64,000 bases of DNA from Vulcanimicrobiota bacterium (lineage in GTDB: Bacteria; Vulcanimicrobiota; Vulcanimicrobiia; Vulcanimicrobiales; Vulcanimicrobiaceae). The stretch covers positions 5,934-69,933 of the forward strand of contig CAVVMT010000019.1 of the NCBI GenBank assembly GCA_963749395.1, read 5' to 3'. Shown here piece after piece: positions 2,138 to 13,628 of the stretch (the stretch's first letter is position 1; every line of letters starts with the position of its first letter). The notes under the pieces were generated by a model that was not told the origin of the DNA, did no database searches, and was given only the letters and a program-made list of their open reading frames with translations. A program made the position numbers and the translations under genes.

Positions 2138-3391
2138 CTATCGGCCGCGCCGGAACGAGCGCACACCGGCGACGATTCCGGCGACGGCCAGGGCGGCAAG
2201 TGCAACGTACGGCAGGAACACGAGCACCGTGAACGCCGCGGCGATCGCCGCCAAGGTGAACTGCCATAGCTGCGCGACCGCGCCGCGCCAGGCGTCGGCG
2301 ATCGTGATTCCGCCCGGCGCCACGGCGCTCGGGCGGTCGTCGGCGACGATGAGATTGATCACCGAGTAGCTCACCCGGTCGCCGAGCGCAGCGAGCGAAG
2401 CCTGCAGCTGCTCGATCTGCTCGCGCACGGTCGAGACTTGGTTCTCCGCCTCGAGCACGTCGGAGATCGAGCCCGAGCGGTGCATGATCCGCAGCAGGTC
2501 GCTCTCGGTCTGCCGCAGGTTGCGCAAGCGCGCGTTCGCATCGACGATCTGGTCGCCGACGTCTTCGGCTTTGACCGTGCGCGCGGCGATCGTGCCGATG
2601 CTCGCGAGCGCGGTCATGGCGGCGTCGAACTGCCGCGCGTCGACCCGCATCTGCAGCGACGCCGCGTGGTGGAGTTCGGGCCGCTCGGGGCTCGTGTATT
2701 CGAGGTTCAAGACGTCGCCGCCGTTCCCGGTCGCGACCGCTTCGAGGCGCGGCAAGGTCGCATCGACGTCGGCGACGGTCAGCGTGACGTCGGCGGTCCG
2801 GGCGATCGCGACGCTGCGCGGTGCCCGCGGGGCGATGCCGTGCGCCGCATTGGCAGCCGCCGAACCGGCCGCGAACGCGGGTTGCTTGATGAGCTGCTTC
2901 GGAGGATGGTCGACGGTCATTTGCGGCCCCTCCTCAGGTCCGCCGGGGACCCCGTTCGCGGGGCCGGCGGCCGGCGGGCGGTAGGCCCCATTTGCGGAGC
3001 GGTTGCCCTGCTCCGGCTCTTTGTCCACATCTACGGTGTGGGTGAACGGCCCCGCTACAATCGGGGGCCGTTTCGGCCCGTTGACGACTAGCGCGAGGAC
3101 GAGGATCGCGGCCCACGGCGCTGCGACCGCCGCCCACTTCCATGCCGCCCAGCGTTGTGGCGTCGGGGCGCGTTCGATCGTTGCGCTGATCCGGGCTCGA
3201 AGCAGCGGCGAGGGCTGCGGCGTGCGCTCGTGCAGCGTGCGGACGGCTTGGGCGACTGCGGCCAGGTCGTCGAGTTCCCGCGCGACCGCGGGGTCGGCGT
3301 CGCGCGCGGTTTCGACCCGGGCTGCTTCGGCGGCGTTGCACGTGCGATTGACGTACCAGGGCAGCAGCGTTTCGAGTTCTTCGTCGGTCAT
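2138..3391 (-). CDS. anti-sigma factor with C-terminal DUF4349-like domain
   Basis: N-terminal anti-sigma-like segment, a TM helix (WAAVAAPWAAILVLALVV), a coiled-coil DUF4349-like region (RLRNLRQTESDLLRIM..EQIEQLQASL) and terminal TM helices. Its start overlaps the sigma factor stop (ATGA at 3388-3391). Confidence 0.65.
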   Translation of the reverse strand: MTDEELETLLPWYVNRTCNAAEAARVETARDADPAVARELDDLAAVAQAVRTLHERTPQPSPLLRARISATIERAPTPQRWAAWKWAAVAAPWAAILVLALVVNGPKRPPIVAGPFTHTVDVDKEPEQGNRSANGAYRPPAAGPANGVPGGPEEGPQMTVDHPPKQLIKQPAFAAGSAAANAAHGIAPRAPRSVAIARTADVTLTVADVDATLPRLEAVATGNGGDVLNLEYTSPERPELHHAASLQMRVDARQFDAAMTALASIGTIAARTVKAEDVGDQIVDANARLRNLRQTESDLLRIMHRSGSISDVLEAENQVSTVREQIEQLQASLAALGDRVSYSVINLIVADDRPSAVAPGGITIADAWRGAVAQLWQFTLAAIAAAFTVLVFLPYVALAALAVAGIVAGVRSFRRGR

Positions 3392-3969
3392 CGTTCTTCA
3401 CTCCGCGCGCCGCGGCGCTCGAGGATCGTTTGCAAGGCGCGCCGCGCGTGAAAGACGCGCGTCTTGACGGTGTTGACGGGACACTGCACGATCTCGGCGA
3501 TGTCGCGATAGCCGTAGCCCATGCCGAACGCGAGCTCGACCACCGCGCGCTGTTCCGCCGGCAGCTCCTCGAGCGCGAGCGCGACGGCGCGTACGAACGC
3601 TTCGGCCGCCACGGCGTCGCCGGTCGCATCGGGCTCGCGCGACCGGGTGGCGATCGAGTCGAGCTCGACGGAGTCGGGCCTGCGCCGGCGCAGCCGGTCG
3701 ATCGTCTTGTGGTGGGCGATCCCGAAGATCCACGTCGAGACGCGGGAGCGGCCGGCGTAGCGGGCCGCGCCGCGCCACACCTCGAGCATCACGTCGTTGA
3801 GGATCTCTTCGGTGGAGTCGCTCGTGCGGGCAAGGGAGCGGATGTAGCGGTACAGCGGGCGCTCGTACCGGGCGTAGAGCGCGTCGAAAGCGGTGCGGCT
3901 GCCCCGCGCGACGGCCTTGACGAGCTCCTCGTCGGCAGGTTGGTCCGGCCCGTCCCGTGTTGGTCCCAT
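3388..3969 (-). CDS. ECF-type RNA polymerase sigma-70 family factor
   Basis: Region 2 (ILNDVMLEVWR, STWIFGIAHHKTID) and region 4 HTH (YGYRDIAEIVQCPVNTVKTRVFHAR). Confidence 0.9.
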   Translation of the reverse strand: MGPTRDGPDQPADEELVKAVARGSRTAFDALYARYERPLYRYIRSLARTSDSTEEILNDVMLEVWRGAARYAGRSRVSTWIFGIAHHKTIDRLRRRRPDSVELDSIATRSREPDATGDAVAAEAFVRAVALALEELPAEQRAVVELAFGMGYGYRDIAEIVQCPVNTVKTRVFHARRALQTILERRGARSEER

Positions 3970-3991
3970 GCGTTCCCCCCGTTTCCCGTCT

Positions 3992-4017
3992 GTCGGGCGG
4001 AGGGCCGAAAAGGTTCA
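3992..4017 (-). promoter_or_regulatory. possible ECF-type autoregulated promoter
   Basis: On the minus strand: TGAACC (4017..4012), 16 nt, CGAC (3995..3992), just upstream of the sigma start. It resembles GGAAC / CGT-type ECF promoters. Confidence 0.3.
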
Positions 4018-4030
4018 CCGCGGGACCCGA

Positions 4031-4059
4031 TTGACAGCGCCCGCAGTCGATGGTATGGT
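4031..4059 (+). promoter_or_regulatory. sigma-70-type promoter (TTGACA, 17 nt, TG-extended TATGGT)
   Basis: TTGACA at 4031-4036, a 17-nt spacer, TG at 4051-4052 and TATGGT at 4054-4059. The ATG at 4068 lies about 8 nt after the -10 box, which implies a leaderless transcript. Confidence 0.6.
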
Positions 4060-4067
4060 GCCATCAC

Positions 4068-4148
4068 ATGAACGCGCAGACGGTTTTCGGGTTTTGGTGG
4101 TATTTTACGCCGCAACACATTTTGCCGGTGAGAATATCGCGCGCCTGA
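4068..4148 (+). CDS. aromatic-amino-acid leader peptide (26 aa, MNAQTVFGFWWYFTPQHILPVRISRA)
   Basis: Hand translation of ATG 4068 to TGA 4146-4148. The run F-G-F-W-W-Y-F spans 4086-4106. The ORF sits between a consensus promoter and a terminator, upstream of DAHP synthase. Confidence 0.55.
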   Translation: MNAQTVFGFWWYFTPQHILPVRISRA

Positions 4149-4176
4149 ACGACTGACCGTTGCGTCACACATCCAG

Positions 4177-4210
4177 GAGCCGCCCTCACCGGGCGGCTCT
4201 TCTGTTTTTC
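4177..4210 (+). terminator. intrinsic terminator / attenuator hairpin
   Basis: GAGCCGCCC (4177-4185), loop TCACC, GGGCGGCTC (4191-4199), then TTCTGTTTTTC. An alternative pairing of CCGGTGAG (4125-4132) with CTCACCGG (4185-4192) would compete with this hairpin. Confidence 0.7.
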
Positions 4211-4223
4211 TAAGGAGCATCCG

Positions 4224-5037
4224 GTGTCGAAATCGTACCCTCTCGCGGAAGCCAACGGCTCCCGGACGCGCGTCCGGGTGGGCAACGCCGTTTTCGGCGA
4301 CGGATCCTTCGCGCTGATCGGCGGCCCGTGCGCCGTCGAAGGGGCGGCCCAGATCGGCGAAGCGGCGCAGGGCGTGCGCGATGCCGGCGCGGTGATGCTG
4401 CGCGGCGGGGCGTACAAGGTGCGGACGTCGCCCTACGACTTTCAGGGCCTAGGCGACCGCGGCGTCGATTTCATCTGCGAAGCGGGCGCGCGCGCGGGGT
4501 TGCCGACGGTGGTCGAAGCCCTGTGCGAAGCGCACGTCGAGGCGCTGGCGCCCCGGGTGTCGATGCTGCAGATCGGGGCGCGCAACATGCAGAACGTGCC
4601 GCTGCTGATCGCGGCCGCGCGCACCGGGATGCCGATCCTGCTCAAGCGCGACAACTCCGCGACCCTCGACGAGCTGTTGCTCTCCGCGGAATACATCCTT
4701 CACGAAGGGAACCCGCACGTCGTCTTGTGCGAGCGCGGCATTCGCGGCTTCGACAAGCACACGCGCAACGTGCTCGATCTCGGTGGCGCGCTGCGGCTGC
4801 GCGAACTGACGCACCTGCCGGTCATCGTCGACCCCAGCCACGCGAGCGGGCGCCGCAGCTTGATCGAACCGCTCGACCCTGGCGGCGGCCGCGGCCGGCC
4901 TCGACGGCGCGATCGTCGAGGTGCACCCGCAACCCGACGAAGCGCTGTCGGACGCAGCGCAGCAGATCGACGTGGCGGCGTTCGCCCGCATCGGGCGCCG
5001 CGTGCGCGCCCTCAGTGAGGCGTTCGCGCTCGCCTAG
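4224..5037 (+). pseudogene. 3-deoxy-7-phosphoheptulonate (DAHP) synthase, type I-beta, with apparent frameshift near 4871-4880
   Basis: AAGGAG, 6 nt, then GTG 4224. Motifs: GPCAVE, LRGGAYKVRTSPYDFQGLG, LQIGARNMQN, KRDNSAT, VDPSHASGRR. The conserved C-terminus LAAAAAGLDGAIVEVHPQPDEALSD... continues in the +1 frame to TAG 5035-5037. Confidence 0.85.
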
Positions 5038-5834
5038 CGGACGGCGGGCTCCGCGGGGGCCGGCACCTCGACGACCACTTCGGGGACGCCTTGCGTCGAG
5101 CGCCGCAGCGTGCGCGTTTCGCTCGGGTTGAAGGCCGTGCGCGCGTGCTGCAGCACGCGGTTGCTCCAGATGATGAGATCGCCCGGGCGCCACGCGTGCT
5201 TGTAGAGCAACTCCTCGCGATAGAGGTGGGCGAACAGGGTCGCGAGCAGCGCCTCGCCTTCCTCACCGGGCAATTCCTCGATGCCGTGCGCGCAGAATTG
5301 GCTCACGTACAACACCGGCGGGCCGCCGTCGGGCAAGAACCGCGCGAGCGGCTGGATCGCGGTCTCGGCTCGCGCCGTCGACGTGTGGCGCGCGTGCAGG
5401 CCGGCGATCCGCACCTTGAGTGCAGTGGGGAGATCTTCGTACGCCTTGACGGCATTGGCCCACAGCGTCTCGCCGCCGCTCGAAGGCACGTCGATCGCGT
5501 AGAGCACGAGCGCGCTCGTGTCGGGGAACTCGAAGAACGAGTGATCGGAGTGGAACGGCAGCGTCCCGTCGCCGACCGCCCCGCCCATCTCGCGGTTCGA
5601 GATGAACATCAGCCCGTCTTCGGGGCGGGTCGTGTGCGTCAGCACCGTCGGTCCGAAGTTCTCGGCGAACGCGCGCTGTTGCTCGGGCGTCACCTGTTGG
5701 TTGCGGAACAAGAGCAAGTGATGTTTGGAGAACGCTTCGAGCAATGCGGTGCGCTCGCCGGCCGTCAGTCCGCGCGCGAGGTCGACGCCCGTCACTTCGA
5801 CGCCGATCACCGGCGAAAGCTCTCTCAATTGCAT
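5034..5834 (-). CDS. TauD/TfdA family Fe(II)/2-oxoglutarate dioxygenase
   Basis: MQLRELSPVIGVEVTGVDL..., the HxD motif LPFHSDHSF, and WSNRVLQHAR. The start at 5834 was chosen for its GGAGG 5 nt upstream. The longer track ORF N-terminus is low-complexity. Confidence 0.8.
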   Translation of the reverse strand: MQLRELSPVIGVEVTGVDLARGLTAGERTALLEAFSKHHLLLFRNQQVTPEQQRAFAENFGPTVLTHTTRPEDGLMFISNREMGGAVGDGTLPFHSDHSFFEFPDTSALVLYAIDVPSSGGETLWANAVKAYEDLPTALKVRIAGLHARHTSTARAETAIQPLARFLPDGGPPVLYVSQFCAHGIEELPGEEGEALLATLFAHLYREELLYKHAWRPGDLIIWSNRVLQHARTAFNPSETRTLRRSTQGVPEVVVEVPAPAEPAVR

Positions 5835-13462: not shown

Positions 13463-13492
13463 GCGACAGGTGGCGCCGTCGTCCGGTAGAAT
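13463..13492 (+). promoter_or_regulatory. possible tRNA promoter
   Basis: GCGACA (13463-13468), 18 nt, TAGAAT (13487-13492), about 20 nt upstream of the tRNA 5' end. Confidence 0.35.
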
Positions 13493-13513
13493 GGTAGTCG
13501 GTCGCCCACGCGC

Positions 13514-13589
13514 GCCGACGTAGCTCAGTTGGTAGAGCAGCTGTTTCGTAAATAGCAGGTCATCGGTTCGAGTCCGATCGTCGGCTCCA
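13514..13589 (+). tRNA. tRNA-Thr (anticodon CGT), CCA encoded
   Basis: Hand-folded cloverleaf. Acceptor stem GCCGACG/CGTCGGC, D arm GCTC-AGTTGGTA-GAGC, anticodon arm GCTGT-TTCGTAA-ATAGC, T arm ATCGG-TTCGAGT-CCGAT, then discriminator T and CCA. Confidence 0.9.
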
Positions 13590-13596
13590 GTCTCAA

Positions 13597-13628
13597 GCCC
13601 CGCCACGGCGGGGTTTTCTGTTTGTTTG
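13597..13628 (+). terminator. intrinsic terminator after tRNA-Thr
   Basis: GC hairpin CCCCGCC..GGCGGGG followed by TTTTCTGTTTGTTT. Confidence 0.6.

Follow-up and report, generated by a model that had tools for sequence, protein, structure and literature searches.

The 64-kb stretch of DNA analyzed here, to which we refer as the window, comes from a member of the Eremiobacterota (WPS-2). It carries at 4031-4223, directly ahead of a gene for a type I-beta 3-deoxy-D-arabino-heptulosonate 7-phosphate (DAHP) synthase, a compact leader region. Comparison of this region with its counterparts in relatives indicates that it is very probably a leaderless ribosome-mediated transcription attenuator controlling the monocistronic synthase gene. 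A short open reading frame (ORF) crowded with phenylalanine (Phe, F), tryptophan (Trp, W) and tyrosine (Tyr, Y) codons is followed by RNA segments that can form three alternative helices: an anti-antiterminator (regions 1:2), an antiterminator (2:3) and an intrinsic terminator (3:4). A first reading of the stretch, made from its letters alone (the sequence-only reading), had likened this arrangement to attenuators of the trpL/pheL type; the likeness is upheld by the retention of all three helices in 15 sequences, and of the whole unit in each of 14 distinct relatives. Every feature that it listed was recovered at the position given. The elements, their conservation, the alternative pairings and an in silico switch of the fold are seen directly, whereas we infer where transcription starts, that ribosomes stall, that transcription does terminate and which amino acids are sensed.

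The leader transcription unit

A consensus scan of 3300-5300 returned one sigma-70-like match, where shuffled sequences lead one to expect 0.1, and one terminator, the hairpin at 4175-4201 with the tail CUGUUUUUCU. The match is the near-consensus promoter (4031-4059) picked out by the sequence-only reading, which had also proposed leaderless initiation at the ATG at 4068, about 8 nt after the -10 box. This proposal gains from the relatives: in 15 of 15 leaders the -10 box and the start codon are 6-9 nt apart, the start is always ATG and no Shine-Dalgarno sequence precedes it. In Streptomyces lividans the distance from the -10 element to the transcription start is 4-9 nt, mostly 5-7 nt (PMC8079986), and a 5' untranslated region (UTR) of 0-3 nt is therefore to be expected here. 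The invariable use of ATG in the leaders, as against the GTG that starts the DAHP synthase of the window, likewise fits leaderless initiation. The view that the leader mRNA is leaderless, with its start placed by the -10 spacing, is thus supported. The combination of TTGAC-N16-18-TAnnnT with an ATG or GTG 4-12 nt further on occurs just once in the whole window. An in-frame ATG at 4050, which would give a 32-codon ORF, was considered as the start and rejected, since this position falls within the promoter and the relatives have nothing equivalent.

The 26-codon ORF described previously is equally distinctive. Its run of six aromatic residues in seven codons (4086-4106) is the sole such case among the 115,842 stop-free seven-codon windows that the six frames of the 64 kb contain. 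The ORF also includes the minor codons TTT (15% of Phe), TAT (23% of Tyr), AGA and ATA (1.9% each). At the other end of the region, the AAGGAG-6-GTG start assigned to DAHP synthase proved correct, and the enzyme is of type I-beta. As the AAGGAG is not sequestered by the terminator, control would act on transcription rather than on translation. We saw no second promoter in the interval that separates the terminator from the start of the synthase gene.

Conservation among Eremiobacterota relatives

The 14 relatives are distinct Eremiobacterota loci, of which three complete ones (L002-L004) came from protein-pattern scans and eleven more from exact-protein look-ups. The protein-pattern genome scan gave four Eremiobacterota loci among the 80 matches listed; in a metagenome scan with generic DAHP synthase motifs, the closest of the matches listed showed 57% identity. 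In the relatives the DAHP synthase shares about 70% identity with that of the window, except in L183, which represents a near-identical strain. The search for an aromatic mini-ORF upstream of orthologous genes, suggested in the sequence-only reading, succeeded at all 14 loci, and at each the unit lies directly upstream of the DAHP synthase gene. Its make-up is constant: TTGACA-17/18-TAnnnT, ATG, aromatic ORF, CCGGUGAGG, a CGCGCGC box, a short hairpin and a GC-rich terminator whose loop is complementary to the CCGGUGAGG segment. Neighboring genes differ from locus to locus, encoding an extracytoplasmic function (ECF) sigma factor, a pyrroloquinoline quinone (PQQ) protein, a major facilitator superfamily (MFS) transporter, SCO1/SenC or a PALP-ACT enzyme. 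The unit thus moves together with its DAHP synthase gene.

Within the leader peptides, the N-termini vary freely (examples from relatives are MTHRAFSYWYWFAPHESMPVR, MVRFSFGYWYWFTARSVPVR, MSTRAFAFWYWFFAARSVPVR and MSRISYVFTAWYFKPHHLSVR) and the core (F/Y)xYWYWF is conserved. At least one Trp, one Tyr and one Phe are present in each of the 15 peptides, and L175 has an extra Phe codon. Further on, the relatives share an invariant GUGCCGGUGAGGUA(A/G), the stop codon standing directly after Pro-Val-Arg. The third positions of GUG CCG GUG AGG in this segment are invariant, and AGG is kept in region 2 though it accounts for a mere 2.8% of the Arg codons in this genome. The fixed third positions and the retained rare codon point therefore to selection on the RNA and not on the peptide.

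In 13 relatives a UAA or UAG stop follows CCGGUGAGG immediately, which would place the terminating ribosome on region 2. The window and L183 depart from this arrangement: the ancestral AGG-UAA/UAG has become AGA-AUA, the ORF is five codons longer and the peptide continues as ISRA. The changed bases also lengthen the 1:2 helix of the window (4097-4106:4131-4140). The moved stop and the longer helix may together represent a rearrangement peculiar to this lineage, by which termination stays the default outcome.

Three alternative helices

Helix statistics were taken from a plain MAFFT alignment (A2) of the 15 distinct leaders, not fitted to structure. In the terminator (4175-4201), 97.1% of the cells are paired, against 28-66% in slid registers; the values are 93.3% against 29-53% for the antiterminator (4125-4132:4185-4192) and 97.1% against 28-48% for the anti-antiterminator (4094-4100:4122-4128). 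Compensatory exchanges between GC and AU affect the terminator in six sequences (columns 123:137), with a covariation score that none of 500 shuffles reached. The antiterminator, one pair longer in most relatives, shows compensation at columns 68:130, where GC is replaced by CG in L182 and by UG in L003. The 1:2 helix has one compensated pair and was proposed independently by RNAalifold (CUGGUAY with RUGCCGG).

In the window itself, CCGGUGAG at 4125-4132 is exactly complementary to CUCACCGG at 4185-4192, so the 8-bp antiterminator put forward by the sequence-only reading survives both inspection and alignment. It placed the first strand inside the leader ORF near its 3' end, which holds for the window; in the relatives this strand is immediately succeeded by the stop codon. 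The GC hairpin it gave as 4177-4199, with its tail, is the core stem (4177-4185/4191-4199) of a structure to which our scan assigns 11 pairs over 4175-4201. Taken in isolation, the 1:2 helix has an energy of -17.6 kcal/mol, the 2:3 duplex -13.7 and the terminator -21.6, the last two figures supplying the comparison of fold energies that had been suggested. The RNA from 4066 to 4215 folds at -64 kcal/mol, far below its dinucleotide shuffles (-44.1 +/- 3.8; z = -5.2).

In silico, a switch between these structures could be reproduced. The free RNA adopts, besides the terminator, a long hairpin that joins 4094-4115 to 4122-4140; in the minimum free energy (MFE) structure of the window, 4097-4112 is paired with 4126-4140. 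The switch was modeled by masking the footprint of a stalled ribosome and truncating the RNA at 4192-4195, before the 3' arm of the terminator emerges. The MFE structure is then the 2:3 helix enclosing a small spacer hairpin, and in the fold of the window bases 4138-4147 additionally pair with 4174-4182 of the terminator 5' arm; RNA that is not masked retains the 1:2 hairpin. With masking and truncation combined, all 15 sequences pass from terminator to antiterminator, with 2:3 helices of 6-9 bp; of the 7-11 nt that make up the terminator 5' arm, 4-8 are engaged.

Two further elements accompany the helices. The spacer hairpin, nested within the antiterminator, is predicted with 3-7 bp in every relative with a readable stalled fold, and its stem sequences differ in several of them. 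In the folds of the window these bases have other partners, lying within the long hairpin when the RNA is free and pairing as 4154-4157:4164-4167 in the stalled fold. The CGCGCGC box has its clearest conserved partner, in untranslated or free folds, in a second box, CGCGC, in leader codons 3-5 (4074-4078); in the stalled fold it pairs with some bases of the terminator 5' arm. Some pairing of the latter kind is predicted in all 15 sequences. The idea that the box extends the antiterminator was nevertheless dropped, as the window pairs 4138-4147:4174-4182 are not conserved in sequence where the relatives' arm reads GCCACCC. The coordinates of all these features are collected in Table 1.

Table 1. 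Positions of the attenuator elements, the DAHP synthase gene and a tRNA unit in the window
Feature	Position	Strand	Basis or remarks
-35 hexamer TTGACA	4031-4036	+	Consensus scan; same spacing in all 14 relatives (TTGACT in L004)
Extended -10 element TGg-TATGGT	4051-4059	+	17-nt spacer after -35; TAnnnT with 17-18 nt spacing in relatives
Putative transcription start	4066-4068	+	Placed by the 8-nt gap from -10 box to ATG; 5' UTR of 0-2 nt
Leader ORF, 26 codons plus TGA, MNAQTVFGFWWYFTPQHILPVRISRA	4068-4148	+	Homologous ORFs of 20-22 codons in all relatives
Regulatory codons TTC GGG TTT TGG TGG TAT TTT (F G F W W Y F)	4086-4106	+	
Region 1, anti-antiterminator 5' strand	4094-4112	+	Overlaps the Trp/Tyr/Phe codons; register 4094-4100:4122-4128 conserved
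Region 2, UUG-CCGGUGAG	4122-4132	+	Alternative partners: region 1 or terminator loop region
CGCGCGC box	4138-4144	+	Almost without variation in alignment A2; immediately follows the leader stop in relatives; presumptive role
Small spacer hairpin AACG-ACUGAC-CGUU	4148-4161	+	Between region 2 and terminator; coordinates from the relatives' GAACG...CGUUC stem
Region 3, CUCACCGG	4185-4192	+	Top of terminator 5' arm, loop, first two G of 3' arm
Intrinsic terminator	4175-4211	+	Stem 4175-4201, loop UCACC 4186-4190, U-rich tail 4200-4211
Shine-Dalgarno AAGGAG (4212-4217), 6-nt spacer, GTG (4224)	4212-4226	+	
Type I-beta DAHP synthase without N-terminal regulatory domain	4224-5037	+	Match begins at position 75 of 338 of the PRK08673 profile
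tRNA-Thr(CGU) unit	13463-13616		Promoter-like GCGACA-18-TAGAAT, gene 13514-13589, clean terminator 13595-13616

Proposed mechanism

One could envision the following course of events. Transcription would start 0-2 nt ahead of the AUG at 4068, on which, as the 5'-terminal codon, a ribosome would initiate. When charged tRNA-Phe, tRNA-Trp or tRNA-Tyr is scarce, the ribosome would stall at 4086-4106 and cover region 1 (4094-4112). Region 2, thereby freed, would pair through CCGGUGAG with CUCACCGG as the latter emerges, additional pairs forming with the 5' arm of the terminator. With the 4175-4201 hairpin blocked, RNA polymerase would read into the DAHP synthase gene. Plentiful aromatic aminoacyl-tRNAs, conversely, would allow the ribosome to reach the stop codon, which in the relatives would leave it on region 2; in the window, region 1 would recapture region 2 behind the ribosome. 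The terminator would then form and transcription would end near 4205-4211. Should the leader not be translated at all, the long 1:2 hairpin would form, making termination the default.

A number of observations tell against this interpretation. The covariation is modest, as expected of a highly conserved element, and 17-27 of 500 shuffles reached the covariation score and the percentage paired of the antiterminator and of the 1:2 helix. The full-length RNA still prefers the terminator when a ribosome is masked on any Trp, Tyr or Phe codon; since the terminator wins at equilibrium, the switch must depend on kinetics. (The terminator of the Escherichia coli trp attenuator is likewise more stable than its antiterminator.) The antiterminator involves mainly the terminator loop and just the top one or two pairs of the stem; that it would exclude the lower stem we infer from steric reasoning and from nested folding, which cannot represent pseudoknots. 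Two features are peculiar to the window: its U-tract is interrupted (UUCUGUUUUU) and weaker than the clean U-tract of the relatives, and its stop codon (UGA, 4146-4148) lies 15 nt downstream of the position seen in the relatives, which would leave region 2 uncovered when a ribosome terminates there. The organism, moreover, is known from metagenome assemblies only, and if a frameshift found in the DAHP synthase gene (see below) is real, the attenuator controls a pseudogene in this genome.

Alternative explanations

It is worth considering whether the hairpin switch might be set by a factor acting in trans, be it a protein of the TRAP or PyrR type, an uncharged tRNA or a ligand, with the ORF as an incidental passenger. 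Such a factor might bind at the conserved CGCGCGC box and at the invariant GUGCCGGUGAGGUA, and the classical model gives the spacer hairpin no function. Yet ORF, ATG, frame and aromatic codons are kept in 15 of 15 leaders while the flanking codons vary, and the aromatic codons, a run unique in the window, lie exactly in region 1. Aromatic mini-ORFs also precede DAHP synthase genes in unrelated RNAs of other phyla, which speaks for the reading of codons and not for an aptamer. Searches against Rfam point the same way. A cmscan of 3500-4700 at E<=10 gave four chance-level matches to unrelated families and no T-box, riboswitch or leader family; the whole window, at gathering scores, gave tRNA alone; and 20 related loci gave no leader, T-box or riboswitch family. 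We therefore consider control in trans quite improbable. We give even less credence to the peptide itself being the sensor, an arrest peptide in the manner of TnaC that would detect a free aromatic amino acid in the exit tunnel by means of its aromatic core and VPVR-stop. The conservation of YWYWF...VPVR and a stop at the amino-acid level, with the relatives' stop directly after Pro-Val-Arg, is what such a peptide would display. However, synonymous positions and a rare codon are conserved as well, which RNA pairing explains, and the peptide of the window runs on as ISRA after VR and the leader keeps all the pairings. Arrest at the stop codon would in any case mask region 2 and favor termination, an outcome that ordinary translation termination already achieves. 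The leader peptide is not known to resemble any of the established arrest peptides.

An equally improbable account makes the ORF a stand-alone gene for a small aromatic-rich protein, the DAHP synthase gene being transcribed separately or through unregulated read-through. Small hydrophobic proteins are common, and promoter, ORF and terminator do constitute a complete small transcription unit. But in that event the conserved pairing that pre-empts the terminator would be purposeless, the peptide N-termini would hardly vary as freely as they do, a promoter might be expected in the interval between terminator and synthase gene, where none is seen, and the unit would not be found directly upstream of DAHP synthase in whatever neighborhood the gene occupies. 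As for mere coincidence, a fortuitous ORF beside an ordinary 5'-UTR hairpin, it can appeal to the general frequency of short ORFs and to nothing else. It is effectively refuted by the comparative data, namely the occurrence of the unit in 14 of 14 relatives at about 70% protein identity, together with the z-score of the fold and the uniqueness of the aromatic run. Attenuation by a translating ribosome is the explanation that we retain.

The DAHP synthase gene and its surroundings

The match of the synthase to PRK08673 begins well inside the profile (Table 1), and the N-terminal extension of longer enzymes is therefore absent. Since the gene that follows, TauD-like, is convergent, the DAHP synthase gene is monocistronic. 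In this assembly its frame is broken by a 1-nt insertion (an extra C at 4874), and the conserved C-terminus resumes in the +1 frame, up to the TAG at 5035-5037; the annotated product (264 amino acids, P0002) consequently loses the conserved C-terminal 50 or so residues. Neither L183, a metagenome contig 98.7% identical, whose protein is intact, nor P0001 has the insertion, which is either an assembly error or the mark of a pseudogene. In 14 of 15 sequences, 11-36 nt separate the terminator from the DAHP synthase gene; for L183 the calculated 66 nt result from a truncated gene call. The names of homologues assign the source organism to the Eremiobacterota, in either Baltobacteraceae or Vulcanimicrobiaceae.

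On the minus strand, divergent from the leader promoter, lie genes for an ECF sigma factor (3388-3969) and a 417-residue anti-sigma-like protein (2138-3391). The intergenic segment 3970-4030 must then hold their promoter too. A second promoter/terminator pair of the window, at 13463-13616, was set aside, being an ordinary stand-alone tRNA-Thr(CGU) transcription unit.

Similar units in other phyla

Aromatic leaders ahead of DAHP synthase genes are not confined to the Eremiobacterota. We scanned 75 species genomes from outside this phylum, taken from among the matches listed, for a unit within 1.5 kb upstream of the gene, defined as a sense-strand mini-ORF with at least five aromatic residues in seven, then a hairpin and a T-run. 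An aromatic mini-ORF with a terminator precedes type I-beta DAHP synthase in 46 of these 75 genomes, whereas the controls, the antisense strand and the downstream side, gave 0/75 each. By group, still among the matches listed, the unit is present in 24 of 35 Acidobacteriota, 8 of 9 Clostridia, all five Cyanobacteria, 5 of 10 Gemmatimonadales and both Spirochaetia. A hairpin with T-run follows 49 of the 52 aromatic mini-ORFs at other DAHP synthase loci among these matches. Loci L042 (2146-2273), L009, L056 and L057, within the series L005-L160, may serve as examples. In several units from Gemmatimonadales and Acidobacteriota, the ATG lies 7-8 nt after the -10 box.

The covariance model built on the Eremiobacterota finds weak full-length matches in the units from other phyla (E from 1e-4 to 0.3), and those of them that were tested had no match in Rfam. 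They may be distant relatives of the Eremiobacterota element or independent inventions.

Two variations on the theme were seen. Cyanobacterial loci have two tandem aromatic leader ORFs, each with its own terminator (L059 at 2148-2269 and 2285-2420; L062, L080, L156, L031); in one example MRTLKMFNSKSYFYFWFKAVHRR is succeeded by ...SWFYGFYFWPR, and Nostoc has two units in tandem. These pairs look like tandem attenuators. In Gemmatimonadales an aromatic leader is found about 1.1 kb upstream of DAHP synthase, before another gene whose product begins MRVAIQG (L016 at 1411-1556, L011 at 414-558, L019 at 1143-1287; L006, L007, L021, L022). One of these reads TTGACA-17-TAGGTT-8-ATG, encodes MTSGYSYWFFFTNAGAARCASGAGRVR and ends in a terminator. 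The position of the leader before an intervening gene suggests an attenuated operon.

On balance, we lean toward the view that these units make up a widespread, uncatalogued class, in which mostly leaderless F/Y/W mini-ORFs and a terminator gate type I-beta DAHP synthase genes or operons. With the same measured confidence, we would let the class span at least Eremiobacterota, Gemmatimonadota, Acidobacteriota, Cyanobacteria, Clostridia and Spirochaetia. A literature search, which was not exhaustive, turned up no description of such breadth for aromatic leaders of DAHP synthase.

Significance

The Eremiobacterota are a phylum known almost entirely from metagenomes, and the attenuator provides them with a concrete, testable regulatory mechanism, one that suggests both leaderless translation and coupling of transcription to translation in these bacteria. 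In other type I-beta DAHP synthases, feedback inhibition is conferred by the N-terminal domain. If this is the function that the present enzyme lacks, attenuation may be the main form of aromatic feedback on the entry of carbon into the shikimate pathway here. A leader that mixes Trp, Tyr and Phe codons would integrate the three end products at their common first step, for which the multivalent attenuation of the ilv operons offers an analogue.

The ratio of 46 genomes to none in the controls suggests an under-described regulatory signal that is easily annotated. It could be of use in genome annotation and in metabolic engineering of aromatic compound production. If the wider class is real, it is tempting to speculate that aromatic-codon attenuation of shikimate entry ranks among the most broadly distributed amino-acid attenuators and that it is the main feedback route for DAHP synthases devoid of an allosteric domain.

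Comparison with known systems

The E. coli trpL and pheL leaders share with the element described here the four-region logic, with regulatory codons in region 1, alternative 1:2, 2:3 and 3:4 pairings and an intrinsic terminator, as well as a terminator more stable than the antiterminator and hence a kinetic outcome. They differ from it in possessing a 5' UTR with a Shine-Dalgarno sequence, of which this leader has none, and in responding to one amino acid in a terminal branch of the pathway, as opposed to three codon types at the common entry step. Region 3, which in E. coli is the whole 5' arm of the terminator, is here centered on the terminator loop.

A closer parallel is found in Corynebacterium glutamicum. 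Leader peptide genes of this bacterium are transcribed leaderless; its AroF is a DAHP synthase of type I-alpha whose gene is followed by others, in contrast to the monocistronic type I-beta gene, without regulatory domain, that is at issue here. Upstream of aroF lies the leader gene aroR, which encodes Phe-Tyr-Phe (Neshat et al. 2014; PMC11802643, PMC4046766), and in this one precedent that has been tested, Phe limitation is reported to have enhanced transcription and Tyr availability to have had no effect (PMC11802643). The two systems have in common a tandem-aromatic leader ORF directly upstream of DAHP synthase, an increase of read-through upon stalling and a high-GC host. The aroR motif has no Trp (PMC4046766), whereas the Eremiobacterota peptides always combine Trp, Tyr and Phe around a YWYWF core. 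The phyla are different, and the likeness is drawn from published descriptions.

In Acholeplasma, uORFC-13-1 before aroF is a predicted upstream ORF with a terminator for which ribosome-mediated attenuation has been proposed (Brewer et al. 2021, PMC8632094). There, too, an upstream ORF and then an intrinsic terminator precede 3-deoxy-7-phosphoheptulonate synthase, but the ORF has a ribosome-binding site, its U-run codes for Phe only, and the element is limited to Acholeplasma and some environmental sequences. Leaderless leader peptides have their own precedents in Actinobacteria: trpL, leuL and ilvL of S. lividans (PMC8079986) and the mycobacterial polycysteine upstream ORFs, whose attenuator function has been shown experimentally (bioRxiv 10.1101/834739). 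Their ORF, preceded by a TAnnnT -10 box, begins no more than 3 nt from where transcription starts, with AUG or GUG as the 5' end, an arrangement that we predict for the leaders of the present study. Unlike these leaders, they serve the Trp, Leu, Ile/Val and Cys pathways, none of them DAHP synthase, and several are without a canonical U-tract terminator. In an earlier comparative study of Actinobacteria, the Phe and Tyr genes yielded no RNA element (PMC1262725). The mechanism is thus classical, and aromatic-leader attenuators of DAHP synthase and leaderless leader peptides have both been described before. What is particular to the present case is the phylum, the use of all three aromatic codon types, the loop-centered antiterminator and the choice as target of an enzyme without regulatory domain.

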